Shown here one piece after another: positions 3,501-37,028 of a stretch of DNA of 64,000 nucleotides. A program made the position numbers and the translations under genes. Position 1 is the first letter of the stretch; every line of letters begins with the position of its first letter. The notes under the pieces are model-generated. The model did not search any database, was not told the origin of the DNA, and worked only from the letters and a program-made list of their open reading frames with translations. Origin of the DNA: Minisyncoccota bacterium (GTDB lineage Bacteria; Patescibacteriota; Minisyncoccia; Minisyncoccales; Minisyncoccaceae); the NCBI GenBank assembly GCA_041657045.1, contig JBBACM010000001.1:13259-77258 (forward strand). Direction: 5' to 3'.

Positions 3501-5520
3501 TGCCAGTAGCGCAAAGGCCTGTTGTGGGAGCTGAAGTCGGAAAGTATTGGCCGTTAGAAGAACCGCAAACTCCGGTAGGAACCTCTTCTGCAGAAAAGAT
3601 AGTCGTTGGAACGACCGCAGAATATTTGTGTACAATAATCCAATCCCAATAAGCTTCATAATTATAAAAATAATCATCATCATATCTTTCCCCTAAAGCA
3701 ATGGGCATTGACGTAATTGACCTGTTAATATTTGATACACTACCATAAGACGCCCCCGTAGCATAATTAGCGATAGATAGGTCTACGGCCGAACTGCTTT
3801 TCACGGCAATTTTTGTTAATAAGTCTGTTGCCGCTGGCGAACCCGATTCACCGCCAGGAAGCTCTATCCAATCATTATTAAAATACCAGTTAGACGCGAA
3901 AGGGATAGCTCCAAAACCAACATAATATGATGAATAAAATCCTCCGGACATAAAACCCATATCAGCCATAGTAACATAACGATGTTTTGTTTCTAGAACA
4001 AAGGGCGTTGTGGCGACGCTAAAAGTAGATATTGATTTTAATCTATCTTTAGTGTTTGACCCTTTTAATTCTCCACCATAAAGAACCCATTCTGGAGCAA
4101 CAGCTGTTCCACTAGACTGAATCCATTTAGAGAGACCGTTATTAAAATCGTCAAAAAAGATAAAAGTATTGGCTCCACTTGAACCAGGGCCAGTCCAACC
4201 ATTACCATAATACATATAAATTATAGTCGCGGCGGCATTAGAAATCGTCGGAACCTTAACCCAGACTTTGGCAACGTCTGGATTGGAGACAGTATCTATT
4301 GACTCGATCCAATAAGAGAGAAGGGTTGCTCCGGTAGAATCGGTGAATCTTAAATCATCAAAATCAGTTTGCATGTCTGAATCATAGGTAACATTAATGG
4401 GCACTTGATAATCAGTCAGTGCTGTCCCAGTATTAATTATTGTTATTGCCTTTCTGCGATCCCAAGCCTTGCTGGCTGTGGATAGTTGTTGGGCCCACAT
4501 TACATAAGTAGGCTCAGAGGGAGTAGGACCCGTAGACATAACAAATTTACGAACAGCAACCCAATCAACCGAGATAGCCTGTGCGTGTCCATAAAAAGAT
4601 GCGGGTAATTGAGAAATTGTTGTTGGTAAATTGGTAGTGATAGTAGAAACAACTGTATTGTCAACACTATAAATCGCACTTACAGTAGAGTTTCTACTAA
4701 TATCATAAATATGATATCCAGTGGTCGGAGTTAGTTGAACTTCTGTTTTATTCGCCGGATAAGGATTTCTTGAAAGTGCGCCAAAAGAACCGGCAACAGG
4801 ATAATTAACATAAAACATATCTGTATAATAATTGTCCGAAGTTCTAAATCCCCAACCAGCATAAGATGATGCTGAGGCCACGCTGACTCTTGAACGGAAA
4901 GAATATCCATTTCCAAATGTCGATATCGAACTTAACATTGATGTACTTGGAGTTCCGGTCGTAGGAATAGTTGCTATATAAGGAGAAATATTATTTAATG
5001 TTGCTGCTCCTGTCCATTTTGTTACATCAAAACTTGTCCCGATAAAATCATCAAAAAAATCAAAAGTATCTACTCCGCTTGAAAGCGTGCCTGTGGTAGA
5101 ATTTCCATAAAACATATACAGATAGGTTAAACCTGCAGTGGGTATGCTCGGAACCTTAACCCAAAAAGTGGCAACGTCTGGGTTGGGAGCAGTGTCTATA
5201 GATTCCAACCAATAAGGAAGTAAAGTAATCCCATCTATTGAAGTAAACCTTATATCATCAAAATCGGACTGCATTTCAGATACATAAGGAACTGTGATTT
5301 TAATCTGATAATCGGTTAAATTAACTCCGGTCGGATTAGTAATCTCTATTTGTCTCTTGTAAGTAAAGGTTGGCAGACGCTGCATCAGCCAGCTCTCTCC
5401 TGCTGCAGAAACATCAACGGTGGACTGTCTTTTAAAGATAAAAAAAGCTCCAAGAATTAAAATTAAAACTGATAGAGCTCCTATGATAAACTTTTTGTTC
5501 TTAGGTATTTTTGAGTGCAT
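583..5520 (-). CDS. Giant (1645 aa) secreted, N-terminally anchored surface protein with four DUF2341-like repeats, LamG/ConA-like modules and two Cys-rich modules
   Basis: N-terminal TM/signal anchor. Four repeats of ...LTDYQ(I/V)...DSDMQ.DFDD(I/L)RFT...YW(I/L)ES...AKVWVK(V/I)P...YMYYGN...F(F)FDDF. Two copies of a C-x5-C...W.WTC motif. Confidence 0.6.
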   Translation of the reverse strand: MHSKIPKNKKFIIGALSVLILILGAFFIFKRQSTVDVSAAGESWLMQRLPTFTYKRQIEITNPTGVNLTDYQIKITVPYVSEMQSDFDDIRFTSIDGITLLPYWLESIDTAPNPDVATFWVKVPSIPTAGLTYLYMFYGNSTTGTLSSGVDTFDFFDDFIGTSFDVTKWTGAATLNNISPYIATIPTTGTPSTSMLSSISTFGNGYSFRSRVSVASASSYAGWGFRTSDNYYTDMFYVNYPVAGSFGALSRNPYPANKTEVQLTPTTGYHIYDISRNSTVSAIYSVDNTVVSTITTNLPTTISQLPASFYGHAQAISVDWVAVRKFVMSTGPTPSEPTYVMWAQQLSTASKAWDRRKAITIINTGTALTDYQVPINVTYDSDMQTDFDDLRFTDSTGATLLSYWIESIDTVSNPDVAKVWVKVPTISNAAATIIYMYYGNGWTGPGSSGANTFIFFDDFNNGLSKWIQSSGTAVAPEWVLYGGELKGSNTKDRLKSISTFSVATTPFVLETKHRYVTMADMGFMSGGFYSSYYVGFGAIPFASNWYFNNDWIELPGGESGSPAATDLLTKIAVKSSSAVDLSIANYATGASYGSVSNINRSITSMPIALGERYDDDYFYNYEAYWDWIIVHKYSAVVPTTIFSAEEVPTGVCGSSNGQYFPTSAPTTGLCATGNIVTGPVANGAGIWTWTCTGVGETIPTNCSTSTFIGRYKKSIPINSSGGALTDYQVPITVTYDSDMQPDFDDIRFTDSTGSTLLPYWIESYTSSSTAKVWVKTSLSAGANTIYMYYGNSSTPSASDGNSTFVFFDDFNGLSLDTTKWTSTASSGVRTFANSLMSVSISGPLSWNTITAKTDTNNATVITGSKLRSNTATSNDCDARVGIKTTGNDIGAKLTLHSNAFYIAPLNENVAWGTNLQTFSLGTWYTFELRHDYSSTFYYRVGQSGTWNSWAINPAGTHISLNVLAYTSGTTNADFDWVYQRKYAATEPTVGSFGAEASTINICGSANGTFVASAPSGSALCSDISTNPTVTGAGPWYWTCASYGGLSSSCMAYASSGLPSLSGWSYKKLVTVSSGSSLTNYAMKIDVPYVTGKMNADFSDLRFAKSDGTIYPYWIESIDTVATPDTAKVWVKIPSIATSPATTFYMYYGNSSAPPASKGDDTFLFFDDFSGTIINTTKWSKTDANNFITQNETLNISDGNQAWDSTEMHTNTTFDRTTSGVMVQSKYKTTLARGTNFYDYTILGVKDSSSGVGSSSFIYDMVGLAAKTDWRFQIFQAGAVVDQFAGYIYPNTQYDTREIINQNGAGTKTEFSSDGGLTWTTYDHVDTAPSTFKTGFTHYQGGDLTIDNVIVRKYVSSEPTASLGGESSTSSGPRAETMYTAGQWDPYAYCEHYFDEDTHTNLLDGDDGNLHLWFTYKDDTPGAYITDYMIAIGTSSLVSEAEINTGWVETDHLPTDEQLYGRVWVKISPGDDQIAYGTTYNWWVKVRSNSAESDWATATFTTPVRHFSTVRVVPVATSVDGDIQLCSGTDISDSEATCYSTCWKGTGPAVVGSTDWKCSVCYDGGTPVSCSTNGNIIIWKIPGTLGDDYSFAPGDDMNSPNPFIHFTSTAPKTVGLEIEGSPYCGNEAIIGPAGSLLPKWREVSPL

Positions 5521-10947: not shown

Positions 10948-11018
10948 CGGGATGTCATATAATGGCATTATGCAGGCTTCGGGAGTCTGTAATCCGGGTT
11001 CAAATCCCGGCATCCCGA
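10948..11018 (+). tRNA. tRNA-Pro (anticodon CGG), no encoded CCA
   Basis: Acceptor CGGGATG/CATCCCG with C1:G72 (typical of bacterial tRNA-Pro), anticodon loop TTCGGGA with G37, T-arm CCGGG-TTCAAAT-CCCGG. Confidence 0.7.
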
Positions 11019-11039
11019 CTATAATTAGTCTTAAAATAT

Positions 11040-11639
11040 ATGGAACAATATATACTGCTAATAATCTTCATTGTCTTGGGTTATTTATTCGGCTCTATCC
11101 CTTTCGGCTATATAATATCAAAGTCAAAAAAAATCGATATCACAAAGCAGGGAAGTGGTAATATCGGAGCGACTAATGTTTCAAGGGTGCTTGGCTTTAA
11201 ATATGCTTTTTTGGTTGGGGCTTTAGATATATTAAAGGCCGTTCTTCCTATATATATAGCAAGTCGCTATATAACCAACGAATGGTATATGGCCTTAGTG
11301 GCTATTTCTCCGATAATTGGCCATATCTTTTCTGTTTGGCTTAATTTTAAAGGAGGAAAGGCCATATCAACAATATTTGCTTCGATTATTTGGATCATCG
11401 GGTGGAAATACGCATTAATATTATTATTAGTTTGGATCGTTGCATTAAGAACAATTAAGATAATGAGTTTAACTAATTTGATAATCATTTGGTTTATACC
11501 TCTATTGTTCTGGTTCCAAACTCATTCTTTTGCCTACTTGACAATTAGTTTATTTTATATTCTTATAGTATACTGGACTCACCGAGAAAATATTCAAAGA
11601 CTAAAAAAGGGAACAGAGAAAAAAATAATTAAAAGCTGA
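11040..11639 (+). CDS. plsY: Glycerol-3-phosphate acyltransferase PlsY (acyl-phosphate dependent)
   Basis: Canonical PlsY motifs GSGNIGATN, FKGGKA and H.EN..RL..G.E, in a multi-TM protein. Confidence 0.8.
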   Translation: MEQYILLIIFIVLGYLFGSIPFGYIISKSKKIDITKQGSGNIGATNVSRVLGFKYAFLVGALDILKAVLPIYIASRYITNEWYMALVAISPIIGHIFSVWLNFKGGKAISTIFASIIWIIGWKYALILLLVWIVALRTIKIMSLTNLIIIWFIPLLFWFQTHSFAYLTISLFYILIVYWTHRENIQRLKKGTEKKIIKS

Positions 11640-11700
11640 TTGATTATAATTAACTTTTAATATATAATTATCTTAATGAATAAATTATCCAATAAATTTT

Positions 11701-12264
11701 GTGGTTAACTACATATATATACTATCCTGCATATATTTCTTCTTTCCGGCCGGGGTTGCCAATGCTTTTCCGCCCCTAGCCAATACTTTCAATATTCTGA
11801 ACGGCTTAAACAAGCCTATTGATGGAGGAAAACAGCTAAATGGAATGCCGATATTGGGCAGCCACAAAACCTGGAGAGGATTATTCTCTGAAATCATTAT
11901 CTGCACTCTTTTAACCCAGCTATTTTTATTTATTCACAAGTACTACAATCTTTCTCTTTATCAAACCATCGGATTTGATTACCAATCTATCAATTCCTGG
12001 CTTTTCGGCATTTTAATGTCTATCGGCATTGTTTTTGGAGACATTTTTTTTGCCTTCATAAAGAGAAGGCTGAGATTGAGACCAGGAGTCGCTTTTGTTC
12101 CTTTTGACCAGACCAATTATGTCATCGGTGCATTTATATTTTTGCAACCACTGATTCACCTATCTATTGAATTTTGGATTACTCTATTTGTCTTGACATT
12201 TTTATTACATGTTTTATCTAATAGGATTGGGTACAACTTAGGGTTGCACAAAGCCAAGTGGTAA
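11701..12264 (+). CDS. Polytopic membrane protein, putatively of the CDP-alcohol/CDP-archaeol synthase (CdsA/CarS-like, DUF46) family
   Basis: About 5 TM helices, a basic KRRLR patch next to an Asp-containing helix, and a phospholipid-gene context. Family assignment is tentative. Confidence 0.35.
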   Translation: MVNYIYILSCIYFFFPAGVANAFPPLANTFNILNGLNKPIDGGKQLNGMPILGSHKTWRGLFSEIIICTLLTQLFLFIHKYYNLSLYQTIGFDYQSINSWLFGILMSIGIVFGDIFFAFIKRRLRLRPGVAFVPFDQTNYVIGAFIFLQPLIHLSIEFWITLFVLTFLLHVLSNRIGYNLGLHKAKW

Positions 12265-12302
12265 TATAAGATTAAAAAGGTTAAAAAATAACCATTATTT
12301 TT

Positions 12303-12953
12303 ATGCAAAACATATTAGATCTATTTTATCAAGAATTATTAGTCCGCGTACCCGACTTGCTCTGGGCGCTGATAACTATATTTTTCGGATGGATTATTGC
12401 CGGAAAAATAAAAAATATCACTATTAATTTTTTAAACAAATTGCGGTTAAACCAGATGCTGAAGTCTTTGGGTTGGGAAACATTTTTCGACAAGTTTGAT
12501 GCTAAAATGAATATTCCTAAGTTCTTCGGTTTGATTGTTGAAATATATTTCTTCCTTCTTTTCCTTATTATCTCGTTCGACATCTTAAAGCTAAATACTA
12601 TAAGCAAACTGATAGGGGACGTTGTCGGATACTATCCTAATATTTTCATTTCAATCCTTATCTTCATTTTTACCGTATTTTTAGCCGATTTCAGTAAAAA
12701 AATAGTTGTCGGCAGCATGGAAAAAGAAAAAATAGTCTACTCTAATTTCTTGGGAGAAATTATTTCTTCTGGTGCCTGGCTTTTGGCAATATTGGCCATT
12801 CTCTACCAATTACAAATAGTCCAAACATTAATTTTAACAATCTTTATTGGAGTGGTAGCTGTTATTGTTATTGCCCTGGGAATTTCTTTCGGCTTGGGAG
12901 GAAAAGACATGGCCAGTAAAATCTTAGAAGACATGGAAAATCGAATGAAATAA
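12303..12953 (+). CDS. Hypothetical polytopic membrane protein
   Basis: Several hydrophobic helices and no recognisable catalytic motif. Confidence 0.4.
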   Translation: MQNILDLFYQELLVRVPDLLWALITIFFGWIIAGKIKNITINFLNKLRLNQMLKSLGWETFFDKFDAKMNIPKFFGLIVEIYFFLLFLIISFDILKLNTISKLIGDVVGYYPNIFISILIFIFTVFLADFSKKIVVGSMEKEKIVYSNFLGEIISSGAWLLAILAILYQLQIVQTLILTIFIGVVAVIVIALGISFGLGGKDMASKILEDMENRMK

Positions 12954-12983
12954 ATAAGATACTACACGTAGATTGTTTTACTT

Positions 12984-14768
12984 ATGGAACAAATATCACA
13001 AAACGAACTTAAAAAAATGCTTCTTTTCTCTTATGAAAGGATAGAAAGAGATAAGGAGCAGGTAAATAAAATAAATGTTTTCCCCGTACCGGACCAGGAC
13101 ACTGGGAATAATCTGGCCGCAACACTGAAGGGAATAAAAGAAGCAATTGAAAATAAAGAATTTGATTCAATCGAAGAACTAAGCAACAGCGCCTTAGACG
13201 GAGCACTGACTGCCGCTCAGGGCAACACTGGAATAATCTATACCGGATTTTTAGCCGGATTTTTTCCTGTAATTGCCAAAGAATCAACTGTTGATGCCAA
13301 AAAATTAGGAGAGGCTCTTACAAAAGGGTACGAAAGAGCCAGAGATTCTATCCAAAATCCCAAAGAGGGAACAATGCTTGATGTTATTGAGGCTTTTGCT
13401 TTAGGGGTCAATGAAAAAGCCAAAGAAGAAAAAGATATTGTTAAAATATTCTATTACGCTTTAGAAAAGGCCAACGCCGCACTATTAGATACCCCGAATA
13501 AAATGGAACTGCTTAAAAAGGCGGGCGTGGTTGATGCTGGAGGATTAGGATTTTTAATGATTATCGAAACATATTTGGATACTTTAAAAGAACAGTCAGA
13601 ACCATTTGTCATCAAGTCATTTGAAAAAGAAGAAATTAACAGGCCAAAAAGATTTGTCCAAATATTATCTAATAGATATGAGGTGGTTTCCTTACTTGAA
13701 GACGGAGACTATTCGGAAAAACAGATTAAAGAAAAACTTCATCATTTGGGCAACTGCCTTGATGTTATCCAAGTAGGAGAAAGGACGAAAATACACATTC
13801 ACACCGACGATCCATACGAAGTAAGGGACATTATTAAAAAGATGGGGAAAATTGAAGACTTGAGAATAGAAGATATGGCCAAAGAAGTAACGGGAGAAAA
13901 ATCGGTTGAAAATGTTTCTGTAGGAATTGTTGTCGATGAAAGAGCTGGCCTCTCGGCTAAAATAGTGGCTCACTACGGAATAGAGGTAATACCCTTAAAA
14001 ATATCCTGGCCGGAAGGGGAAAGTATTATCGGAGAAAATATATGCCAAAGAATTAAAGAGGCTAAAAAACAGGGAATAGTTTCTCAGCCCAAAATAGAAC
14101 CGATTTCGCCTGAATTCTTTATGGAATCATTTAAGAAACAGTTGGAAAATTTTGAAGATATTTTATGCATAATTTCTTCTTCTAGGCTCTCTAAAAACTA
14201 CGAAGCCGCAACCAAGGGAAGGGGAATGCTCAATTATGTCGAACGAGAACACGTCTTTGTAATTGATTCAAGAAACATCAGTGCCGGACAATCTCTTTTA
14301 ACTCTTGAAGCTTTAGAAATGATAACCGAACAAAGAAAAATAAGGGAAGTGCTAAAAAAACTGGATACCGCCATTATTAAAACCAACCTCTATTGCATCG
14401 TAGAAAAATCTGACTGGTGGAATAAAGAAAAAGCAAAACCTTTCTGGTTTAATAAAAAACAAGAAAAACGATATGCTTTAGGAGAAATGAAACACGGGAA
14501 AATTATACCCACCGAAACAATTAAAACAACCGATTTCGCCTCTGCATTGTTTAATAAAATAGAAAAAGAATCGAGGAAGGATATAAAGGAGGGGAAAAAA
14601 TTGAGAGCGGTCATCGTCCACGGAGATAACTTAGAACAAGCCGAAGAATTAAAACAAAAGCTTAAAACAATTAAAAAAACAGACATTTCTTTTGTAAATA
14701 TTACCGATCCGATTACAAGCATTAACGCTTGTCCACAAAGCATACTTGTCGGCTGGATAATCAAGTAG
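12984..14768 (+). CDS. fakA: Fatty acid kinase FakA (DAK2/DhaL-domain protein of the YloV family)
   Basis: N-terminal DhaL/DAK2 signature (PVPDQDTGNNLAATL) and a DegV-like C-terminal half, followed by two DegV (FakB) genes and PlsY paralogs. Confidence 0.7.
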   Translation: MEQISQNELKKMLLFSYERIERDKEQVNKINVFPVPDQDTGNNLAATLKGIKEAIENKEFDSIEELSNSALDGALTAAQGNTGIIYTGFLAGFFPVIAKESTVDAKKLGEALTKGYERARDSIQNPKEGTMLDVIEAFALGVNEKAKEEKDIVKIFYYALEKANAALLDTPNKMELLKKAGVVDAGGLGFLMIIETYLDTLKEQSEPFVIKSFEKEEINRPKRFVQILSNRYEVVSLLEDGDYSEKQIKEKLHHLGNCLDVIQVGERTKIHIHTDDPYEVRDIIKKMGKIEDLRIEDMAKEVTGEKSVENVSVGIVVDERAGLSAKIVAHYGIEVIPLKISWPEGESIIGENICQRIKEAKKQGIVSQPKIEPISPEFFMESFKKQLENFEDILCIISSSRLSKNYEAATKGRGMLNYVEREHVFVIDSRNISAGQSLLTLEALEMITEQRKIREVLKKLDTAIIKTNLYCIVEKSDWWNKEKAKPFWFNKKQEKRYALGEMKHGKIIPTETIKTTDFASALFNKIEKESRKDIKEGKKLRAVIVHGDNLEQAEELKQKLKTIKKTDISFVNITDPITSINACPQSILVGWIIK

Positions 14769-14860
14769 TATAATATTAAATATAATAATTAATCCTTATT
14801 CACAAAGCATACTTGTCGGCTGGATAATCAAGTAGTATAATATTAAATATAATAATTAAT
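14734..14860 (+). repeat. Tandem direct duplication (2 x ~60 nt, period 67) covering the last 12 codons and stop of fakA plus the downstream AT-rich spacer
   Basis: CACAAAGCATACTTGTCGGCTGGATAATCAAGTAGTATAATATTAAATATAATAATTAAT occurs twice. Confidence 0.9.
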
Positions 14861-14880
14861 AATAAAAATAAATAAAAGAT

Positions 14881-15828
14881 ATGTCTTCTATTCTCAAAAA
14901 AGCTTTTACGCTAATTGAGTTGCTAGTCGTAATCGCCATCATCGGTATTCTCTCTGGTCTAATCATAGTCGGAATGAATGGAATGACTAGACAGGCAAGT
15001 ATTGCTAAATCCCAGGTATTCAACAACTCACTAAGAAACTCATTGATGAATGATATGGCAGCAGATATTCCTTTAGACGGAAGCGCCGAAGACATCTGGA
15101 ATCACAATACCGGAACTGGCGTAGGAGGTACTTTTTTAACTCAAGCAAATGGTAATTGTGTTCAAAATACCTGCTATAGTTTCAACGGAGGAGTTGGCGG
15201 TGTCGCAACTACTGATTATGTTTGGCTAGCTGACAATGACAAATACGCCCTCACAAATCAAATGACCGCCATGATATGGGTAAAAGGAAACGCGCCAGCA
15301 ACTACAGACAGAGTCGCTTTCGGTCACTGGGATGCCTCCGGAGCAACAACAGTAAGAGGGGAATGGAAAATTATGTCGGCGATAACTACTGGTGCCCTTA
15401 GGGTAATCGTATCTAATGACGGAGCGGAATCAACTGCTGCTAATTATAAAAACTATGTTACTTCAAGCGCAACCCCCTTTGATGGAAATTGGCACTTAGT
15501 CGGATTCACTTTTAATGCTGGGACCCTAACTTTATATGTCGACGGAGTATCAGCTTTAGTCACCATGACAAACGATGGAGCAAGCGCCACAAGCATATAC
15601 GCTTCAACTTCCCACCTTACTTTAGGCGCCAGCTTAAACGCTAACGCCTTAGTTACTACAACTACTTTTGCCGGACTTTTAGACAGCGCCAGATTCTATG
15701 ACGCACCGATTCCGACATCTCAGATTAAAGAACTGTACTACGCTGGCTTAACTAACCTGTTCGCAAAAGGACAAATAACTGCACAAGAATATTCTGAAAG
15801 AATAAGCTCTGTAGGAATAAACAATTAA
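14881..15828 (+). CDS. Type IV pilin-like protein (prepilin-type N-terminal cleavage/methylation helix) with a large LamG/ConA-like globular domain
   Basis: N-terminus KKA|FTLIELLVVIAIIGIL with Glu at +5, followed by a Gly/Thr/Asn-rich beta domain. Confidence 0.65.
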   Translation: MSSILKKAFTLIELLVVIAIIGILSGLIIVGMNGMTRQASIAKSQVFNNSLRNSLMNDMAADIPLDGSAEDIWNHNTGTGVGGTFLTQANGNCVQNTCYSFNGGVGGVATTDYVWLADNDKYALTNQMTAMIWVKGNAPATTDRVAFGHWDASGATTVRGEWKIMSAITTGALRVIVSNDGAESTAANYKNYVTSSATPFDGNWHLVGFTFNAGTLTLYVDGVSALVTMTNDGASATSIYASTSHLTLGASLNANALVTTTTFAGLLDSARFYDAPIPTSQIKELYYAGLTNLFAKGQITAQEYSERISSVGINN

Positions 15829-15833
15829 TATAA

Positions 15834-16715
15834 ATGGAGTTAGTAAAAGAGAAAATAGGCCTCATCGTCGGCGAAACTTCTGATTTACCGCAAGAAATTG
15901 TCGACATAAATAAAATAACTGTTGTCAGGTTCAAATTAGATTTTCAAGAATTGGCAAATCTACCCGGCAATGTCTACGAAAAAGTAAGGGAAGGGGAAAA
16001 AAGAGGAATAAAAAGCCTAATAAAAACATCCCAACCATCAATTAACGATTTTCTCTCAGTATTCAAGGAAAAACTCAAAGAATTTGAAGAAATTTTATGC
16101 ATAACTTTTTCTTCAAAAATATCGGGAGCATATAATTCTGCGATACAGGCCAAAAAATTTCTAGAAGCTGAATTGCAAAATAAAGTACACGTATTTGATT
16201 CGATGAATGCCAGTGGCTCGGAAGGACTCGTTGCCTTAAAAGCAATTTCTTTGATTAAACAAAAACTTAATCTTAACGAAATTATCGAAAAGCTAAAAAA
16301 AGAATTGCCGAATATAAAACTCATAGGAATGTACAAGAGTCCGAAGTGGATTGAAGCAAGCGGAAGATTTCCAAGGTTTGTTCCCGCGATGATGAATCAG
16401 GCGGAAAGAATGGATATCAAGCCTGTCTTTGGATTAAGAGACGGAAAGTTAACAATTGTCGGGGTTAAAAAAAATATTAAAGACATTGCCACCGCTCTTT
16501 TCGAAGAATTTGAAAAAACAACGAAAAAAATCAGAGAGTCTGGAAAAAATATCGACATTGCCATAACCCACGCCGACAACATAGAACAAGCGAACAAATT
16601 GAAAGATTTAATCCTATCCCTTGAAAATACAAAAATTGCTTTTGTTAGCTTAATCTGTTTTCCAGTCGGGGGGCATATAGGTCCCGGCTCAATGGTTCTT
16701 TCTTGGAATCAATAA
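15834..16715 (+). CDS. DegV-family fatty-acid-binding protein (FakB-like)
   Basis: DegV family architecture; paralog of the next gene. Confidence 0.7.
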   Translation: MELVKEKIGLIVGETSDLPQEIVDINKITVVRFKLDFQELANLPGNVYEKVREGEKRGIKSLIKTSQPSINDFLSVFKEKLKEFEEILCITFSSKISGAYNSAIQAKKFLEAELQNKVHVFDSMNASGSEGLVALKAISLIKQKLNLNEIIEKLKKELPNIKLIGMYKSPKWIEASGRFPRFVPAMMNQAERMDIKPVFGLRDGKLTIVGVKKNIKDIATALFEEFEKTTKKIRESGKNIDIAITHADNIEQANKLKDLILSLENTKIAFVSLICFPVGGHIGPGSMVLSWNQ

Positions 16716-17605
16716 TAATTAAAAATATGAAAAACGCAACAATAATAGTAGGAGAAAGCGCATCTATGACCAAAGACGTTATTGATAAATTTGGAATGAT
16801 TGTCGCTCCTTTTGTTGTCGACTGGCCGGAAGGAATAAATCTTCCCGGTAACAATATTTTTGAAAAAATGAGGGAAGCCGAAAGGCTGGGAATAAAAACA
16901 ACCCCTAAAACTTCTCAACCATCAATAGGCTTATTCAAAAAAATCTTTGAAGAAGCCCTGGAAAACAGCGAAAATATTATTTGCATAACTATAAGTTCAG
17001 CTATCTCTGGAACATACAATTCCGCAGTGCAGGCTAAGAAAATGGTCGAAGAAGAAAAGCAAAAAAGAATCTTTGTTTTTGATTCTTTTAATGCCGACGC
17101 AAGTGAAAGCTTACTTGCAATTAAAGCTGCTGAAATGGCCGAAGAGGGAAAAAGGGGGAATGAAATAATGGTAACCCTGGAAACGCTTTCTCCCAAGACC
17201 TTTCTTTTCGGAATGCTTGAAAGCCCTAAATGGCTTGAAGCAGGAGGAAGAATAAACCATGCTTTATCAATAATTCTTTCTCAGATGCAAAAAATAGGAA
17301 TGAGGCCAATCCTTACCATAAAAGACGGACTGGTTAAGCCGGCTAATCTAAAAATGCAAGCTCAAGATACGGCTAATGCCATATTTAAACAATTAGAAAA
17401 CACCATCAAAAATCCTTTATCAGAAGGAAAAAAATGCCGGGTTGCTATTTCCCATGCCGACAATCTTGAGCAAGCTCAAAGGTTAAGAAGCATGATTGAA
17501 GAAAAATATCCGCAAGTTAAAATAGAATTTATCGGCATAACCAGTATTGTTATCGGCGCCCATGTCGGACCGGGAACATTACTCTGTTGCTCATTAGAAG
17601 GATAA
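16703..17605 (+). CDS. DegV-family fatty-acid-binding protein (FakB-like), second paralog
   Basis: Clear similarity to the preceding DegV gene (KTSQPSI..., CITISSAISGTYNSA..., ISHADNLEQA...). Confidence 0.7.
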   Translation: MESIIIKNMKNATIIVGESASMTKDVIDKFGMIVAPFVVDWPEGINLPGNNIFEKMREAERLGIKTTPKTSQPSIGLFKKIFEEALENSENIICITISSAISGTYNSAVQAKKMVEEEKQKRIFVFDSFNADASESLLAIKAAEMAEEGKRGNEIMVTLETLSPKTFLFGMLESPKWLEAGGRINHALSIILSQMQKIGMRPILTIKDGLVKPANLKMQAQDTANAIFKQLENTIKNPLSEGKKCRVAISHADNLEQAQRLRSMIEEKYPQVKIEFIGITSIVIGAHVGPGTLLCCSLEG

Positions 17606-17615
17606 TTGAAATAAA

Positions 17616-18287
17616 ATGAACATTAACTATCTTTTAATCGCTGCAGCTTCTTATCTAATAGGCTCAATCCCTTTTGCCCTTTTATACATAAAACTTCTAC
17701 TGAATAAAGACATTAGAAGTTTCGGCTCAAAAAATACTGGAGCACTCAATGCCTTAAGAATTGCCTCGCATGAAAAAGGAAGGGCGTGGGGAGTAATTTC
17801 ATTTTTAATAGTTTTTTTCTTTGATGCTTTTAAAGGTGCAATAGCTGTTATCCTGGCAACTAATTTAATGCCGGAGAACACAATACTCTCCATAACTATC
17901 GCAACATTCTTTGCTATCTTGGGACACAATTATTCAATAATTCTTAACTTTAAAGGAGGCAGGGGAGCGGCTACCTTGGGCGGGATATTATTATATCTCA
18001 ATTGGCAGGTATTCCTCGGCTCGGTTATTACCATCCTTTGTTTTATGATTCTCGCCGAAGCGTTAGCGGGAAGAAGAATTTCCAAAAAATTCTTTAAAAA
18101 AGCTGTTTCCGACCAAATAATAGGAAGATTAATCGGAGAAGCATATGCCGTGTGGTGGATATATCTTTTTGACCAGACACTATTTTATCCTGCTCTTTTC
18201 GGAACAATGTTGGTAATTTTTTCCCACAAAGACAGATTAACTGATCAAATTAAAGAGATAAAAAATAAAGCATACTTAAATGGATGA
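17616..18287 (+). CDS. Divergent PlsY-family membrane acyltransferase paralog
   Basis: Motifs GSKNTGALN and FKGGRGAAT; the third PlsY motif is degenerate. Confidence 0.55.
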   Translation: MNINYLLIAAASYLIGSIPFALLYIKLLLNKDIRSFGSKNTGALNALRIASHEKGRAWGVISFLIVFFFDAFKGAIAVILATNLMPENTILSITIATFFAILGHNYSIILNFKGGRGAATLGGILLYLNWQVFLGSVITILCFMILAEALAGRRISKKFFKKAVSDQIIGRLIGEAYAVWWIYLFDQTLFYPALFGTMLVIFSHKDRLTDQIKEIKNKAYLNG

Positions 18288-18933
18288 AGCTATCCTTCCT
18301 ATCTTTCTATTAATCGACGCCTATCTTTTAGGCTCCATTCCTTCCGGGTATTTGATAACCAAATACACAACCAATAAAAACCTGCTGGAAATAGGATGGA
18401 AAAAGAATTCCGGCTCAAATGTTTTTAAAAATGTCGGATTATGGCAGGGAGTATTCACTTTCCTCCTCGATGTAGCAAAAGGATTTCTTGCTGTCTATCT
18501 GGCCAGATATTTCGGTTTCTCCGAATTATTCCAGGTTTTCTGCGGTGTTTTAGCAGTAACCGGGCATAATTGGTCTATCTTCCTCGGATTAAAGGGAGGA
18601 AGAGGTTTAGCCGCCCTGGCAGGAGCACTATTAGTAATCTCTCCCTTAGTTTTAGTTATTTCCTTGATTCCTTTCGTCGTTTTTACTATAATTTGGACAG
18701 GTTCGGTGGGAACCCTTTTATCATTTTTAGCTGCTATTATTTTTTCCTTTTCTTTTAAAGGCTACGAAATGGCCGGATTACTAATGTTAATCTCCTTTAT
18801 CCCCGTGATAATCAAGAGATTGAGCCCGATTAAAGAACTGATAAATAACCCGAAACAAAAGGAGCTGATTGAAAACCGCCTTATTTTTGACCAAGATACT
18901 GTCCCACCAATCAGGCTTAAACTAAAAAAATAA
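18280..18933 (+). CDS. Divergent PlsY-family membrane protein paralog (third copy)
   Basis: LGSIPSGYL..., NSGSNVFKN, LKGGRGLAAL. More diverged than the other two. Confidence 0.45.
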   Translation: MDEAILPIFLLIDAYLLGSIPSGYLITKYTTNKNLLEIGWKKNSGSNVFKNVGLWQGVFTFLLDVAKGFLAVYLARYFGFSELFQVFCGVLAVTGHNWSIFLGLKGGRGLAALAGALLVISPLVLVISLIPFVVFTIIWTGSVGTLLSFLAAIIFSFSFKGYEMAGLLMLISFIPVIIKRLSPIKELINNPKQKELIENRLIFDQDTVPPIRLKLKK

Positions 18934-18939
18934 AGACAA

Positions 18940-19012
18940 GCCCCCGTAGCTCAATCGGATAGAGTGCTGGTCTTCGGAACCAGTGGTGCGAGTTCGAGTC
19001 TTGCCGGGGGCA
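18940..19012 (+). tRNA. tRNA-Arg (anticodon TCG), no encoded CCA
   Basis: Acceptor GCCCCCG/CGGGGGC, D-arm GCTC-AATCGGATA-GAGT, anticodon loop CTTCGGA, T-arm GCGAG-TTCGAGT-CTTGC. Confidence 0.75.
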
Positions 19013-19076
19013 CAAAACAGCTTGATTTTTTATAAAAAACAGGATATACTCCAGACACATAACAAAGTCAATTAAC

Positions 19077-19469
19077 ATGCTTAGAACAAAGACAAAAAGA
19101 CTAATCTTTGCTTCCGTATTGTTTTTTTTGTTTATAAGCTTTATGCCTGCTTTTGCCGCCTTGGTTACCTGCGGCAACGAAGGTCAGCCAGCTTGTACTC
19201 TAGATAACATGTTCGAAACATTGGTTAATGTGATTAATTTTGTTCTGTACGACATTGTTCCTCCATTGGCCGCATTCGGATTCGCCATGGCCGCGGTCAC
19301 TATGATGACTTCTAACGGAGATCCTGGCAAGTTCAAGCAGGGCAAAGACGCTATGATTACCATCGGAATAGGATTAATAATAATCTATCTCGCCTGGTTT
19401 ATAGTAAGCAGCTTCATTGAATTCTTAGGAGGAAAAGAGTGGACATTACAGTTTTTCAACAAGGAGTAA
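19077..19469 (+). CDS. VirB2/TrbC-like pilin (T4SS-type pilin): signal peptide plus two hydrophobic helices separated by a charged GDPGKFKQGKD loop
   Basis: Signal peptide ending AFA|A, the characteristic helix-loop-helix topology, and two N-terminal Cys. Shares its core module with the pilin-fusion genes at 26.2-31.0 kb. Confidence 0.55.
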   Translation: MLRTKTKRLIFASVLFFLFISFMPAFAALVTCGNEGQPACTLDNMFETLVNVINFVLYDIVPPLAAFGFAMAAVTMMTSNGDPGKFKQGKDAMITIGIGLIIIYLAWFIVSSFIEFLGGKEWTLQFFNKE

Positions 19470-26210: not shown

Positions 26211-27251
26211 CTATTCTTCTCTGTATAGAGAAAAAGTCATATATGAAAAGGGCTTAATCGGACTTTTTTCACTTGCATTATAGATGTAGCTATACTTAAT
26301 CGTATTGATACAATTAGAAGCACTTCCAGTAAAAAACTGGCATTGGCCTAACGCATTCTTATCCTTATCCTTAAAAAGAATTGCCGTTCCCGGATTAACC
26401 TCAACAGACAAAACATCTCCGACGAAATCCTTGCAAGAATCTTTAATGTTTGTAAACTCCGACACTGAACTAATCGTACAAACGCTTGTTTTTTCTTCTT
26501 GTTTGCCATATTCATCACTTCTCTTCTTGCAGTTTATATTATTGTACAATTTAACAGCGGGGGAGCCGTCAGCCGTCTCAAAAACGATAATAGAAGAAAG
26601 GGTGTCTTTGCCTATCGGAGGATTATTTTCACCTGCGTTAGAAGCTCCAAGATTATCGCTATTGCTTAAAAGATATGAACAATTTCCTTCCATATCTCCT
26701 TCAGGAAAAAGAACTGCACCGTATCCATAATTTTCCCCGTTGACGAATTCTATCGACTTAACCTTCCTCTCAAAACCCTCATTTATCAAAGAAGCTTTTG
26801 ATGATTTTAAAACCAAGGAATCTCCGTCGTCCTTATAGAGATAAACTCCTGTTGGTTTAACTGTTTCGTATGTTTGGCTTGACTTTGGCTCTTTACTCAA
26901 ATCATCTATTTTTATAATCGCAAGTTCTGGATTTATAGTATTCAATATCATAAAAGAAGCTAAAAGTATGACTGTGCCCAAAAGAGTGTCTTGGATTTTC
27001 TTTTTTGCACCCTCTATTTTGGATGGATCACCTCTTGAATTAACATAATCAATGCCGGCAACTATAATCATTACCGTGGCCACAATCGTTCCGATGGCTA
27101 TGGTTAAATTGAAAAAATAGACGACGAAATCAGATGCGGTTGCATTTTGAGGAATGCCGGCAATAACCGGTATTTTAATTGCGGCATATGCAGGAAAAGA
27201 AACGATTAATCCTGCAACGACCGAAAAAACTATTTTTTTTATTTTATTCAT
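26211..27251 (-). CDS. Pilin-domain fusion protein A (346 aa): signal peptide, VirB2/TrbC-like two-helix module, Cys-containing ectodomain
   Basis: N-terminal module VVYFFNLTIAIG...IIVAGI...RGDPSKIEGAKKKI...LLG...LNTINPEL, shared with the two upstream paralogs and with the 19077 pilin. Confidence 0.55.
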   Translation of the reverse strand: MNKIKKIVFSVVAGLIVSFPAYAAIKIPVIAGIPQNATASDFVVYFFNLTIAIGTIVATVMIIVAGIDYVNSRGDPSKIEGAKKKIQDTLLGTVILLASFMILNTINPELAIIKIDDLSKEPKSSQTYETVKPTGVYLYKDDGDSLVLKSSKASLINEGFERKVKSIEFVNGENYGYGAVLFPEGDMEGNCSYLLSNSDNLGASNAGENNPPIGKDTLSSIIVFETADGSPAVKLYNNINCKKRSDEYGKQEEKTSVCTISSVSEFTNIKDSCKDFVGDVLSVEVNPGTAILFKDKDKNALGQCQFFTGSASNCINTIKYSYIYNASEKSPIKPFSYMTFSLYREE

Positions 27252-27252
27252 T

Positions 27253-28566: not shown

Positions 28567-28578
28567 ATTGATTACATT

Positions 28579-31047: not shown

Positions 31048-31048
31048 T

Positions 31049-31384
31049 TTATTCTGTATCGATTAAATTAAACAAAACAGATAATGTCCAGAAGGGAACA
31101 ACTCCGACATAAGGAATTAATTCTCCAAAAGTAGGAATGGATATTTTTGTCGAATTTCCGGTAAATAATTTACTAAGCTCCTCTAATGCTCCTTTTCGCC
31201 CCCGAGCGTTTCTCGGCTTCTTGTTTCTTATAATCAGCCACATGTTTATAGTAGCAATTCCTATCATGTCTGTCATCCCAAAATCATCCCAACCCAAACA
31301 AAAGAGAACAATTCCAACTGCATCCAATCCTATTGCAAGGGGGAGCATACAAAAAACTTCTGGGGTAAATTTAAGTCCGAGCAT
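31049..31384 (-). CDS. Small membrane protein. Its C-terminus (IPTFGELIPY...SVLFNLIDTE) resembles the leader/first-helix region of the pilin-fusion paralogs; it may be a split-off N-terminus of the 822-aa gene.
   Basis: Manual alignment with the N-termini of 26211 and 27253. It abuts the 822-aa start with a 1-nt gap in a different frame. Confidence 0.4.
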   Translation of the reverse strand: MLGLKFTPEVFCMLPLAIGLDAVGIVLFCLGWDDFGMTDMIGIATINMWLIIRNKKPRNARGRKGALEELSKLFTGNSTKISIPTFGELIPYVGVVPFWTLSVLFNLIDTE

Positions 31385-31479
31385 ATTAATTTAATTATAC
31401 TTTATTGGCCTTGAGACATCAACCCTGCCAAAAAAAAGTTTACAATTTATTAGAAAGTATTGTATAATATTTATAATAT

Positions 31480-33429: not shown

Positions 33430-33432
33430 TTT

Positions 33433-33912: not shown

Positions 33913-33927
33913 AAAAAATAGCTGGTA

Positions 33928-35331: not shown

Positions 35332-35502
35332 CTTTCCTTTTCTGTTTTAAAGTTTCACATTACATAATCGTAATATCCCTTGGCTTAGCCAAAGAACACT
35401 ATTATTATGTACTATATTAACACTTTTGTCAAGCTACCACGCATATCTTAATAGCGCACCCATTGAATCTCAAAAAATATATGGTAAAATACTTATATAC
35501 AT

Positions 35503-35958: not shown

Positions 35959-35960
35959 AT

Positions 35961-36386: not shown

Positions 36387-36388
36387 TT

Positions 36389-37024: not shown

Positions 37025-37028
37025 AAAT

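Follow-up and report, generated by a model that had tools for sequence, protein, structure and literature searches.

The window, a 64-kb stretch of DNA, belongs to a member of the Patescibacteria near Minisyncoccales, a group whose cultivated representatives live as parasites of methanogens. Positions 11040-18933 of the window hold a single gene block, all on the plus strand between tRNA-Pro and tRNA-Arg, in the order plsY1, carS-like, MscTM, fakA-degV, a pilin gene, degVa, degVb, plsY2 and plsY3 (Table 1). A sequence-only reading had previously named every gene but MscTM, the ninth gene of the block; the ORFs that it named were all found in place on the plus strand, and each was supported by HMM assignment. 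Among 80 species-level genomes, the order PlsY1-CarS-MscTM-FakA/DegV-DegV-DegV-PlsY2-PlsY3 was repeated in ~40 and the core CarS-MscTM-FakA/DegV in most, indicating that the co-location is not due to chance. With the full DegV-type domain of the kinase included, the block contains three DegV-type modules, namely the kinase C-terminal domain, degVa and degVb. As had been reported from the sequence, no fatty-acid synthesis genes were in view: fab, acpP, plsX, plsC, cdsA and pgsA were not seen in the window or in 10 kb on each side, and statements of gene absence here refer to these ~84 kb.

Table 1. Features of the gene block and its edges (positions in the window).
Feature	Position	Strand	Length	Evidence or remark
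tRNA-Pro(CGG)	10948..11019	+		ARAGORN; upstream edge of block
plsY1, canonical acyl-phosphate:glycerol-3-phosphate acyltransferase	11040..11639	+	199 aa	PF02660 158 bits; TIGR00023 equivalog 174.1 > cutoff 137.2
carS-like membrane cytidylyltransferase	11701..12264	+	187 aa	PF01864 96 bits; GTG start
MscTM, conserved helical membrane protein	12303..12953	+	216 aa	PF05552 44 bits, two stretches
fakA-degV fusion	12984..14768	+	594 aa	Pfam, NCBIfam, PDB phmmer, Foldseek
Perfect 67-bp tandem duplication, 1.9 copies	14734..14860	+		TRF, 100% matches; direct read of sequence
Type IV pilin-like protein, LamG/ConA-like domain	14881..15828	+	315 aa	N_methyl prepilin motif; Laminin_G_3
degVa, FakB-type fatty-acid-binding protein	15834..16715	+	293 aa	PF02645 136 bits; TIGR00762 157.6 > cutoff 99.7
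degVb, FakB-type fatty-acid-binding protein	16703..17605	+		PF02645 182 bits; TIGR00762 197.8
plsY2, PlsY-family paralog, altered acceptor pocket	17616..18287	+	223 aa	PF02660 115 bits; TIGR00023 105 < cutoff 137
plsY3, PlsY-family paralog, strongly remodelled acceptor pocket	18280..18933	+	217 aa	PF02660 113 bits; TIGR00023 110.5 < cutoff 137
tRNA-Arg(TCG)	18940..19013	+		ARAGORN; downstream edge of block

The fakA-degV product is composed of a DhaL/Dak2 ATP domain (aa 34-198), a FakA middle domain (aa 231-302) and a DegV-like domain (aa ~311-594), with Pfam scores of 109 bits for Dak2, 54 bits for FakA-like_M and 103 bits for DegV. In PDB phmmer searches, the N-terminal and middle parts matched residues 3-322 of S. 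suis FakA (7W7H), and the C-terminal part matched DegV/FakB chains, not FakA_C. Foldseek placed the predicted N-domain on S. aureus FakA_N with a TM of 0.93 and an rmsd of 1.4 Å over 203 residues, confirming the DhaL-fold similarity on which the sequence-only reading depended, and the predicted C-domain on whole FakB chains with a TM of about 0.7. Alignment of the N-domain with S. aureus FakA_N over ~200 residues contained the motif VFPVPDxDTGxN and paired QGNTG with ARGNSG and GVVDAGG with GVVDSGG. The invariant H271-x-H273 of the middle domain corresponds to the catalytic residues His282/His284 of SaFakA (PMC9136124). No equivalent of the catalytic Cys240 was found in the kinase, where the invariant E233 probably occupies this position, and the protein scored below the curated cutoffs for FakA (153 vs 975) and YloV (254.8 vs 396.1). 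The C-domain has I instead of T62 (K-T-S-Q-P to K-I-E-P-I) and N instead of H270, lacks R173 and retains S95. The fatty-acid carboxylate residues of this domain are gone in the window's clade but retained in distant relatives, and its pocket motifs are invariant yet non-canonical. Because a DegV-type domain sits in place of FakA_C, the kinase is a non-canonical FakA; its earlier description as fakA, a DAK2-domain kinase, holds for a DhaL-type fatty-acid kinase but not for canonical FakA. A similar arrangement is known from dihydroxyacetone kinase DhaK/DhaL, which is related to the Fak family (PMC9136124) and in which the substrate sits on an EDD-fold partner and is phosphorylated by a DhaL-type nucleotide domain; matches of the window's kinase to DhaL models were weak, its substrate module is instead DegV-type (lipid-binding) and covalently fused, and neither DhaK nor DhaM is present.

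Both stand-alone DegV proteins, whose DegV matches agree with the two DegV/FakB binding proteins proposed earlier, keep the carboxylate-binding residues T62, S95, R173 and H270. In DegVa, K-T-S-Q-P, S95, G-R173, H270 and G-P are conserved among 60 orthologs, and DegVb aligns with S. aureus FakB1 over its full length, with TSQPS, SSxISGTY, GGR and GAHVGPG kept. Translation of degVb probably starts at ATG 16727 (292 aa) rather than at TTG 16703 (300 aa), and public gene calls give 292 aa. Together with the DhaL-type ATP domain, the His-x-His middle domain and a canonical PlsY gene in the operon, these separate binding proteins resemble the Firmicute fatty acid kinase pathway of Staphylococcus aureus and Streptococcus suis, in which FakA and FakB1/FakB2 provide acyl-phosphate to PlsY (PDB 7RM7, 7W7H, 5WOO). 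In contrast to the stripped Firmicute FakA_C, which binds FakB, the C-terminus of the window's kinase is a full-length DegV that retains the three tunnel-forming segments. The window further differs from the Firmicute pathway in the missing Cys240 equivalent, in scores under the curated FakA and FakB equivalog cutoffs, in having no PlsX or ACP context, and in a unit enlarged by two further PlsY paralogs, the conserved membrane protein and a CarS-like gene.

All three PlsY proteins belong to PF02660, not to an unrelated transporter family, and align with Aquifex aeolicus PlsY (PDB 5XJ5-5XJ9). The single canonical plsY of the sequence-only reading was borne out by plsY1, the product of which exceeds the TIGR00023 cutoff, aligns with 5XJ5 over residues 9-195 and keeps the substrate-binding residues known from the Aquifex structures, including the G3P clamp S35/R45/K104/N180 as well as H177, T41 and H92, with S142 changed to N. 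The plsY1 gene is missing, without remnant, from the syntenic slot in the close relatives L004, L006 and L008, in which PlsY2 and PlsY3 remain. In both PlsY2 and PlsY3, the phosphate-hole loop GG[KR]G is retained together with H92, N42 and D59, whereas fixed alternative residues take the place of the G3P clamp. Compared with the Aquifex enzyme, PlsY2 carries T41L, K104R, S142R and N180R, and PlsY3 carries S35W, G36K, N37K, R45K, K104R, S142T, H177R and N180P; the changed positions are those of the Aquifex G3P phosphate clamp and 2-OH site. The PlsY2 orthogroup signature is S35, K36, N37, L41, N42, R45, D59, H92, R104, R142, H177 and R180, and that of PlsY3, nearly invariant, is W35, K36, K37, S41, N42, K45, D59, H92, N93, R104, T142, R177 and P180. 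These substitutions are fixed across 40 or more species, among which identity of the neighbouring kinase spans 41-85%. The dN of PlsY3 was the lowest in the cluster (0.09-0.15; PlsY1, 0.18; PNPase, 0.10-0.11), and that of PlsY2 was 0.19-0.27 with an omega of about 0.12. Matches to PlsY3 at <= 1e-30 comprised only 21 representative clusters among 1.84 billion proteins, with PlsY3-Dak2-FakA_M-DegV fusions among them. In other lineages, a PlsY3-type module is joined to Dak2, FakA_M and a canonical DegV in a single polypeptide (P0242, P0253 and P0254), with no other PlsY nearby. The plsY2 and plsY3 genes overlap by 8 nt and are translationally coupled. Judged by their sequences, PlsY2 and PlsY3 form two conserved orthogroups rather than degenerate copies; in each of them the glycerol-3-phosphate pocket has been rebuilt and the acyl-phosphate site left intact.

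The CarS-like protein had been described as CdsA/CarS-like; its CarS-type character was upheld by PF01864, and a CdsA identity was rejected, as its PF01148 score of 21.1 lies under the gathering cutoff of 24. Its score for CDP-archaeol synthase (NF003114) is 120.7, below the cutoff of 148. Two blocks, residues 7-63 and 106-187, align with Aeropyrum pernix CarS (5GUF) and include both protein ends, and D41, K56, G113-D114, K121-R122-R123 and D136-Q137 are >= 90% conserved in 66 orthologs. The two proteins are of similar size and have the P-x-D-x-G, G-x-x-K-T/W-x-x-G, G-D...K-R-R and D-Q motifs in common, but the window's protein is bacterial and has no neighbouring GGGP or DGGGP synthases. Almost every locus that covers the interval from carS to fakA has MscTM there; its AF2 model is all-helical (pLDDT 82), and it matched nothing in the PDB by sequence or by fold.

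On these grounds, we consider it probable that the block is a Patescibacteria (Paceibacteria/Minisyncoccales-type) operon for making membrane lipid independently of ACP, from scavenged fatty acids via acyl-phosphate. The domain assignments and the lack of fatty-acid synthesis genes in the region support the same core idea in the sequence-only reading, that FakA/FakB supply PlsY with acyl-phosphate in a scavenging lifestyle. DegVa and DegVb are predicted to be FakB-like binders of free fatty acid, because their carboxylate-binding residues are intact. The FakA-type kinase, through its DhaL ATP and His-x-His middle domains, would convert the bound fatty acid to acyl-phosphate, replacing the PlsX step, and PlsY1 would move the acyl group onto glycerol-3-phosphate to give lysophosphatidic acid. 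These three steps follow from the sequence or from well-characterised homologs, and the three below are ones that we only infer. PlsY3, and probably PlsY2, may also use acyl-phosphate with a different acceptor, since both keep an intact site for acyl-phosphate and other lineages have PlsY3 fused to the kinase. That acceptor would most likely be a one-chain (lyso) glycerophospholipid, yielding a two-chain lipid phosphate, which the CarS-like enzyme could convert with CTP to a CDP-lipid for head-group attachment. For the kinase-fused DegV-like domain of this clade, the likeliest role is FakA_C-like docking of the stand-alone FakBs or binding of another lipid. Archaeal CarS is selective for isoprenoid archaetidic acid, which makes it less certain that the CarS-like enzyme accepts a diacyl substrate. 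Nor is a PlsY-type second acylation strictly required in the cultured relative M. archaeiphilus, since PlsC and an acyl-CoA synthetase are encoded there. Nealsonbacteria have PlsY and PlsC but neither PlsX nor ACP-dependent enzymes, and their source of acyl-phosphate is in question (PMC7242380); if our proposal is true, the fatty-acid kinase block is the source missing in published CPR studies.

A possible but unlikely alternative is that the cluster serves archaeal-type (isoprenoid ether) or mixed lipids, not purely bacterial ones. The CarS-like protein would then be a true CDP-archaeol synthase using archaetidic acid obtained or derived from an archaeal host, hybrid ether/ester lipids would arise from acylation of a prenyl-glyceryl phosphate (GGGP-like) or of glycerol-1-phosphate by PlsY2 and PlsY3, and the altered DegV-like domain of the kinase, with its invariant non-canonical pocket, might carry a lipid other than free fatty acid. 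Indeed, distant relatives in which the CarS-MscTM-FakA core is orthologous have genes for a GGPP synthase-like protein, a GGGP synthase (TIGR01769 200.7 > cutoff 161.6), a UbiA with DGGGP synthase as best match and a geranylgeranyl reductase (GGR) between plsY2 and plsY3, with start and stop codons overlapping by 4 nt, and their PlsY3 signature is identical to the window's. In 22 loci, a CDP-alcohol transferase with archaetidylinositol-phosphate synthase as best match adjoins carS. PlsY can use glycerol-1-phosphate (PMC13400652), and the window's reduced cluster is shared by the cultured relatives M. archaeiphilus (L039) and Ca. Microsyncoccus archaeolyticus (L025), both of them parasites of methanogens. 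Archaeal-type ether-lipid gene clusters occur in Ca. Cloacimonetes, other FCB bacteria and one Parcubacteria genome, the last with GGGP and DGGGP synthase homologs, and CarS is missing from Cloacimonetes MAGs (Villanueva et al., PMC7852524). The relatives' clusters hold the same kinds of gene as these bacterial clusters but, unlike those of Cloacimonetes, interleave them with the fatty-acid kinase and PlsY paralogs and include CarS. However, no isoprenoid genes were found in the window, its 10-kb flanks or any locus of its clade; the window either lost them or always lacked them. Both stand-alone DegVs are canonical fatty-acid binders, only acylglycerol lipids were detected in CPR small-cell fractions in the single lipidomic study found (PMC7242380), and growth of Nealsonbacteria on E. 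coli lysate was interpreted, by the authors who observed it, as excluding any need for archaeal lipids.

The two paralogs might instead be ordinary glycerol-3-phosphate acyltransferase isozymes, distinct solely in regulation or in the acyl chains that they prefer. Several PlsY copies exist in some Firmicutes, all three proteins match PF02660 at E <= 1e-32, PlsY2 or PlsY3 might cover G3P acylation in the three relatives without PlsY1, and the triple fusions likewise have no second PlsY at hand. We nevertheless find this rather doubtful. In Aquifex PlsY, alanine at any clamp residue (S35, R45, K104 or N180) removes >92% of the activity and makes the Km for G3P 5- to 36-fold higher, R45K loses >90%, N180H is almost inactive and H177 is irreplaceable by any side chain (PMC5700162), whereas PlsY3 combines W35, K45, R177 and P180, PlsY2 has L41, R142 and R180, and both fall under the PlsY equivalog cutoff. 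Their degenerate third motifs had led to the suggestion of altered acceptor specificity or loss of catalysis. The motif alignment confirmed the third-motif changes, with H/R in PlsY2 and R/P in PlsY3 at the Aquifex His177/Asn180 positions, and showed that canonical motif-1 and motif-3 residues are missing, but that the two are decaying or non-catalytic duplicates is strongly disfavoured and very improbable. Altered acceptor specificity is favoured because the substitutions are fixed, the dN of PlsY3 equals that of PNPase and is below that of PlsY1, and PlsY3-type modules are fused to complete FakA-DegV kinases; moreover, the plsY2 and plsY3 frames, with their coupled overlap, are intact in most covering loci, and the few shortened ones are mostly at contig ends.

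The pilin-like protein with a LamG domain, already recognised as embedded in the cluster, is a lineage-specific insertion unrelated to the lipid block. No loci other than L007-L012 and those of the window's own contigs have its gene at this site; elsewhere fakA and degV abut, and pilin paralog arrays were found at other sites in L030 and L059. The 67-bp duplication upstream of it spans the fakA stop codon, and the near-identical contig L001 is without one copy.

Nine ORFs, all on the plus strand with short gaps or overlaps between them, were found at 11040-18933. Pfam and NCBIfam assignments bore out the co-located FakA, DegV, PlsY, CarS-like and pilin genes that the sequence-only reading had described, with one architecture corrected; the ORFs it named were all present, but the membrane gene at 12303-12953 had been omitted from its list. 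The AlphaFold2 model of the encoded protein, MscTM, had a pLDDT of 82, and neither a sequence search nor a fold comparison (lowest Foldseek E about 1) found a PDB relative. No fab, acpP, plsX, plsC, cdsA or pgsA gene was found in the 64-kb window or within 10 kb past each end, in line with the earlier remark that no fatty-acid synthesis genes are in view. Elsewhere the window carries housekeeping genes (NusA, Tig, ClpP, PNPase, DnaA/DnaN, Ruv and ATP synthase) and type-IV-secretion-like genes. Since a promoter and terminator scan was uninformative, yielding sites no more numerous than in shuffled sequence, operon structure was taken from strand, spacing and overlaps alone.

Genes of the block and its flanks (window positions), and archaeal-type lipid genes in relatives' loci (locus positions)
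Feature	Position	Evidence
tRNA-Pro	10948-11019	upstream flank of block
PlsY (plsY1)	11040-11639	TIGR00023 174.1 > cutoff 137.2
CarS-like (carS)	11701-12264	PF01864 96 bits vs 22; NF003114 equivalog 120.7 < 148; CdsA PF01148 21.1, below gathering score 24, 71 residues only
Membrane protein (MscTM), 216 aa	12303-12953	two PF05552 stretches, 44 bits
Dak2 + FakA-like_M + DegV (kinase)	12984-14768	109, 54 and 103 bits
Prepilin motif + Laminin_G_3 (LamG pilin)	14881-15828	Pfam/NCBIfam; N-terminal residues 6-28, PF07963 27.7 vs 21.2, TIGR02532 30.3 vs 16.3
DegV (degVa)	15834-16715	136 bits
DegV (degVb)	16703-17605	182 bits; ATG 16727 is the start in public calls
PlsY-like (plsY2)	17616-18287	PF02660 115 bits; TIGR00023 105.4, under PlsY equivalog cutoff
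PlsY-like (plsY3)	18280-18933	PF02660 113 bits; TIGR00023 110.5, under PlsY equivalog cutoff
tRNA-Arg	18940-19013	downstream flank of block
Archaeal-type gene stretch, L078	11680-16855	
Archaeal-type gene stretch, L051	3159-8607	
Archaeal-type gene stretch, L076	9275-14607	
Geranylgeranyl reductase (L051/L076/L078)		TIGR02032 188.5 > 158.8
UbiA prenyltransferase (L051/L076/L078)		DGGGP synthase best match, 235 < 296
Short-chain prenyl/GGPP-synthase-like enzyme (L051/L076/L078)		
GGGP synthase (L051/L076/L078)		TIGR01769 200.7 > 161.6; NF003198 300.6 > 247

The N-terminus of the 12984-14768 product carries a DhaL/Dak2 ATP-binding domain (PF02734, 109 bits). Its first 200 residues align to S. 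aureus FakA_N, nucleotide-binding motifs included, and the N-domain model matched FakA_N with a Foldseek TM of 0.93 and an rmsd of 1.4 Å; the AlphaFold2 model of the whole kinase, from a 14-sequence alignment, was weak (mean pLDDT 65, pTM 0.44) and was used for domain-level fold matches only. In the middle domain (PF21645, 54 bits) H271 and H273 are invariant, and this H-x-H pair matches the catalytic His282/His284 of SaFakA (PMC9136124). There is no Cys at the spacing expected for Cys240, where an invariant E233 stands, and C258 aligns to a Ser in S. suis FakA. The FakA assignment held for the Dak2 domain and, less clearly, for the FakA-like_M domain, but not for the C-terminus, where FakA_C (PF13684) gave no match and a DegV domain was found instead: the last ~285 residues match PF02645 DegV and full-length DegV/FakB proteins by sequence and fold, with a Foldseek TM of about 0.7 across entire FakB chains. 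Canonical FakA_C has a FakB-like fold without three fatty-acid-tunnel segments and docks FakB (PMC9136124); in the kinase C-domain all three tunnel-segment regions are occupied. The protein also scored below the curated whole-protein cutoffs (NF038248 153.4 vs 975; TIGR03599 254.8 vs 396.1). It probably works like FakA, yet departs from that family in two defining features, FakA_C and the curated cutoffs.

The stand-alone DegVa and DegVb scored above the TIGR00762 cutoff (157.6 and 197.8 vs 99.7) and under the FakB1 equivalog NF038249 (89 and 128 vs 350). Of the residues that bind the carboxylate or serve catalysis (S. aureus FakB1 numbering), T62 and S95 are each present in 61/61 DegVa and 54/54 DegVb orthologs, R173 in 60/61 and 54/54, and H270 in 48/61 and 48/54. 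Judged by domain and residue content, both are DegV-domain proteins with FakB residues. The kinase-fused domain of the window clade does not retain the carboxylate residues (I62, no R173, N270). Alignment of 78 kinase orthologs to S. aureus FakB1 separated classes of fused domain. In a distant class of 28 orthologs (41-50% identity), the FakB signature of K-T-S-Q, S95 and G-R173 is kept, H270 is present in 16/28, and 0 or 1 stand-alone degV lies nearby in 26/28 loci (three in the other 2/28). The window-clade class has K-I-[E/N/D]-[P/S]-I, S95, no R173, N270 and C272, a clade-invariant pattern (ITDPxTSINACPxS), and two or three stand-alone DegVs then nearly always follow. A third, small class shows F95, K173 and K270. 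Read most simply, the ancestor would have been a single-chain FakA-FakB kinase, and in the window clade the fused module would have given up fatty-acid carboxylate binding, separate FakB-type proteins taking the role. The invariant motifs at its pocket positions argue that the fused domain still binds something; docking of FakB, as by FakA_C, and binding of another lipid are candidate roles.

All three PlsY-type proteins exceed the PF02660 gathering score, and PlsY1 alone reaches the TIGR00023 cutoff. In Aquifex aeolicus PlsY, the phosphate of G3P is clamped by S35, R45, K104 and N180, its 2-OH is liganded by S142 and H177, and acyl-phosphate is contacted by T41, by H92 and, through their backbone, by residues 104-107 (PMC5700162). 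We aligned 45, 44 and 41 orthologs of PlsY1, PlsY2 and PlsY3 from relatives' loci, each set with the window copy, and compared signature positions.

Signature residues of the three PlsY groups (aaPlsY numbering)
Protein	35	36	37	41	42	45	59	92	93	104	142	177	180
Aquifex PlsY	S	G	N	T	N	R	D	H	M	K	S	H	N
PlsY1	S	G	N	T	N	R	D	H	I	K	N	H	N
PlsY2	S	K	N	L	N	R	D	H	N	R	R	H	R
PlsY3	W	K	K	S	N	K	D	H	N	R	T	R	P

All three proteins retain H92, the GG[KR]G loop, D59 and N42 as acyl-phosphate elements; H92 occurs in 41/46 PlsY1, 45/45 PlsY2 and 42/42 PlsY3, and G102-G103-[KR]104-G105 is retained in every group. The G3P pocket is complete in PlsY1 save for N142, and judged by family score and pocket PlsY1 is a PlsY. 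The pocket residues are replaced in PlsY2 (R104, R142 and R180, plus L41) and in PlsY3 (W35, K45, R104, T142, R177 and P180), and these replacements are fixed rather than scattered. In the Aquifex enzyme, changing any phosphate-clamp residue to alanine caused an activity loss of >92%, R45K lost >90%, N180H was near-inactive and H177 could not be replaced by any tested side chain (PMC5700162). These losses at positions substituted in PlsY3 make efficient G3P acylation by this protein unlikely. Public records call PlsY2 and PlsY3 glycerol-3-phosphate acyltransferases; since both belong to the PF02660 superfamily but do not retain the G3P pocket, this label is unwarranted.

Constraint on the paralogs was compared by dN against five relatives, using dN rankings alone because dS was saturated (>1.3) and omega, at about 0.04-0.2, was rough. 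The values were 0.09-0.15 for PlsY3, 0.09-0.14 for the kinase, 0.10-0.11 for PNPase, 0.18 for PlsY1 and 0.19-0.27 for PlsY2, and the constraint on PlsY3 is at least that on the canonical enzyme. In three close relatives (L004, L006 and L008) plsY1 is gone without a tblastn-detectable remnant from its slot, which the gene of the CCA-adding enzyme and carS flank, and plsY2 and plsY3 are retained. A C-terminal extension of 60-150 aa was seen on PlsY3 of M. archaeiphilus (L039 14316-15371), on the homolog P0243 and at the loci L052, L029, L032, L033 and L035; in P0243 (352 aa) and another homolog, P0241 (271 aa), the two sequences read, it is Lys/Pro/Thr-rich and apparently of low complexity.

An exhaustive phmmer search, with PlsY3 as the query against 1.84 billion representative proteins, returned only 21 clusters at E <=1e-30, and several of these are long proteins. 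In P0242 (868 aa), P0253 (838 aa) and P0254 (866 aa), four modules are joined in one polypeptide: a PlsY3-type membrane module (GWKKTSGSNV, GHNWS, GGRG, IKRLSP), Dak2, FakA_M and a canonical DegV (TTSAP, GGR, GTHTGPG). Their loci (L086 for P0242, L088/L089 for P0253 and L087 for P0254) have CPR-like contexts with no other nearby lipid genes save one stand-alone degV directly upstream of P0242. The fusions give the PlsY3 type a physical link to the production of acyl-phosphate and are the strongest argument for PlsY3 as an active acyl-phosphate-using enzyme. No description of a PlsY-FakA-FakB fusion was found in the literature searched.

The cytidylyltransferase, previously left as CdsA/CarS-like, is assigned by its scores to the CarS family rather than the CdsA family, and shares the D, K, GD, KRR and DQ motifs with 5GUF. 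The reaction that defines CarS, the CDP-archaeol synthase, is one of archaetidic acid (DGGGP) with CTP. In three distant Paceibacteria relatives (L051, L076 and L078), four genes with start/stop overlaps of 4 nt lie between plsY2 and plsY3, encoding the archaeal-type enzymes listed in the table. At 22 loci, a CDP-alcohol transferase (best match archaetidylinositol-phosphate synthase, 130 < 180) and a PHP phosphatase adjoin carS divergently. These neighborhoods indicate that the CarS-like gene ancestrally belonged to a complete archaeal-type pathway interleaved with the kinase and PlsY paralogs, an evolutionary link that was unexpected. None of these isoprenoid genes was found in the window, its flanks or any locus of its clade. 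GGGP and DGGGP synthase homologs have been noted earlier in one Parcubacteria genome (PMC7852524).

The kinase shares 84-85% identity with proteins of 'Candidatus Paceibacterota' and 'Minisyncoccales' MAGs, 64% with Ca. Microsyncoccus archaeolyticus and 60% with Minisyncoccus archaeiphilus PMX.108, which its species paper describes as an obligate parasite in cross-domain symbiosis with Archaea; a 198-kb JGI metagenome contig carries the same sequence. Among 80 loci (one genome per species, ORFs classed by phmmer against the window proteins), the order CCA-PlsY1-CarS-MscTM-FakA/DegV-DegV-DegV-PlsY2-PlsY3-T4SS pilin-S15-PNPase recurred across some 40 genomes whose kinases are at least 59% identical, both named archaeal parasites included, and the CarS-MscTM-FakA/DegV triad in most of the loci, down to 41% kinase identity. 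The LamG pilin occupies the slot between the kinase and the first degV in the closest relatives only (L007-L012), indicating that the pilin, although present in the cluster as first described, is a lineage-specific insertion outside the functional unit. Just upstream of it, a perfect 67-bp tandem duplication (1.9 copies, 14734-14860) takes in the final 35 nt of fakA-degV, stop codon included, and the spacer that follows; the near-identical contig L001 has a single copy. In some relatives LamG-type pilin paralogs also form tandem arrays of up to nine immediately upstream of the lipid cluster (L030 117-8615; L059, upstream of plsY1), which suggests that these genes are a mobile or fast-expanding family in the cluster region. 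At L040 (CAWECB010000003.1) the whole cluster is present with CCA, carS and fakA each split into short ORFs, through either frameshift-type assembly errors or pseudogenisation.

In the pathway that we propose, DegVa and DegVb would bind scavenged fatty acid, the kinase would turn it into acyl-phosphate and PlsY1 would produce lysophosphatidate, steps for which the motifs are intact and well characterised. PlsY3, and probably PlsY2, may pass the acyl group of acyl-phosphate to an acceptor other than G3P, and the CarS-like enzyme might then yield a CDP-activated lipid. A one-chain glycerophospholipid is the favoured acceptor because the site for the acyl donor is preserved and the clamp for the small molecule G3P has been lost, and because CPR cells are reportedly rich in lysolipids and without ACP-dependent enzymes (PMC7242380). 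Tentatively, and with less than even confidence, we propose that PlsY3 and probably PlsY2 are new acyl-phosphate-dependent acyltransferases acting on a lipid with one chain (lysophosphatidate, a lysophospholipid obtained by scavenging, or prenyl-glyceryl phosphate in relatives with GGGP synthase by plsY3); that, combined with a bacterial CarS and a fatty-acid kinase that is single-chain or fused, they would give Patescibacteria an ACP-independent path to lipids with two chains, perhaps ether/ester hybrids; and that the FakA-DegV fusion is a surviving intermediate on the way from a FakA-FakB single-chain kinase to canonical FakA, whose C-domain is a stripped FakB. M. archaeiphilus encodes PlsC and an acyl-CoA synthetase, so that a PlsY-type second acylation is not obligatory in every member; its PlsC weakens the idea of PlsY2/PlsY3 as a necessary PlsC replacement. 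Fak-PlsY fatty-acid incorporation is a known system of the same kind, but several components of the block are uncharacterised. Fak-type signalling was rejected as the chief role, since close linkage with three acyltransferases and a cytidylyltransferase points to lipid synthesis.

Alternatively, the block could make archaeal or hybrid lipids, with archaetidic acid from the host as the CarS substrate and GGGP or G1P as the acceptors acylated by PlsY2 and PlsY3. The archaeal-type lipid genes in relatives' neighborhoods, the archaeal hosts of the cultured relatives and the fact that PlsY can accept G1P (PMC13400652) speak for this, but isoprenoid genes are missing from the window clade, acylglycerols were the only lipids found in the one lipidomic study of CPR (PMC7242380) and Nealsonbacteria grew on E. 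coli lysate; we regard it as doubtful. That PlsY2 and PlsY3 are plain G3P acyltransferase isozymes would fit with PlsY1 having been lost in some relatives, yet conflicts with the mutagenesis data at the substituted positions and seems quite unlikely. Decayed or non-catalytic copies, an alternative that the sequence-only reading had raised for the extra PlsYs, are effectively excluded by the conservation of PlsY2 and PlsY3 and by the PlsY3 fusions.

The operon bears on how membranes are built in the very large Patescibacteria/CPR radiation, where fatty-acid synthesis, ACP and PlsX are all absent. Published CPR work noted PlsY without any acyl-phosphate source (PMC7242380), and lipid uptake mechanisms of Patescibacteria have been stated as not identified (PMC11665869). 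A fatty-acid kinase adjoining plsY offers a concrete, testable answer to the missing source and bears on lipid uptake; the presence of the operon in M. archaeiphilus, the only cultured Minisyncoccales, makes an experimental test possible. The literature searched yielded no paper in which CPR bacteria are linked to fatty acid kinase or DegV, and described neither a FakA with a complete DegV domain, nor a pair of PlsY subfamilies that are deeply conserved yet have a rebuilt acceptor pocket (in some lineages one is kinase-fused), nor a bacterial CarS. The interleaving with archaeal-type ether-lipid genes in relatives bears on the 'lipid divide' and on lipid acquisition and remodelling by parasites of archaea.

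Past the cluster lies a TrbC/VirB2-like T4SS pilin gene (19077-19469), syntenic in most loci, and 26211-38804 encodes three large proteins, each with a T4SS-pilin domain at its N-terminus, along with a PrgI-like protein and an ATPase of the VirB4/TraG type; these genes look like the type IV secretion-like system known from Patescibacteria. Exact-sequence look-ups of the proteins at 33928-35331 and 37029-38804 gave no match, and both were annotated by Pfam. A giant DUF2341 protein of 1645 aa (583-5520, minus strand), encoded just upstream of ClpP, Tig and NusA, may be surface-exposed. On the contig of a 98%-identical strain (L085 15473-17756, about 4-6 kb past the 3' end of the window), a radical SAM protein gene adjoins that of a methyltransferase which matches, among other methyltransferase families, the cyclopropane/mycolic-acid synthase family PF02353 and could be lipid-modifying.
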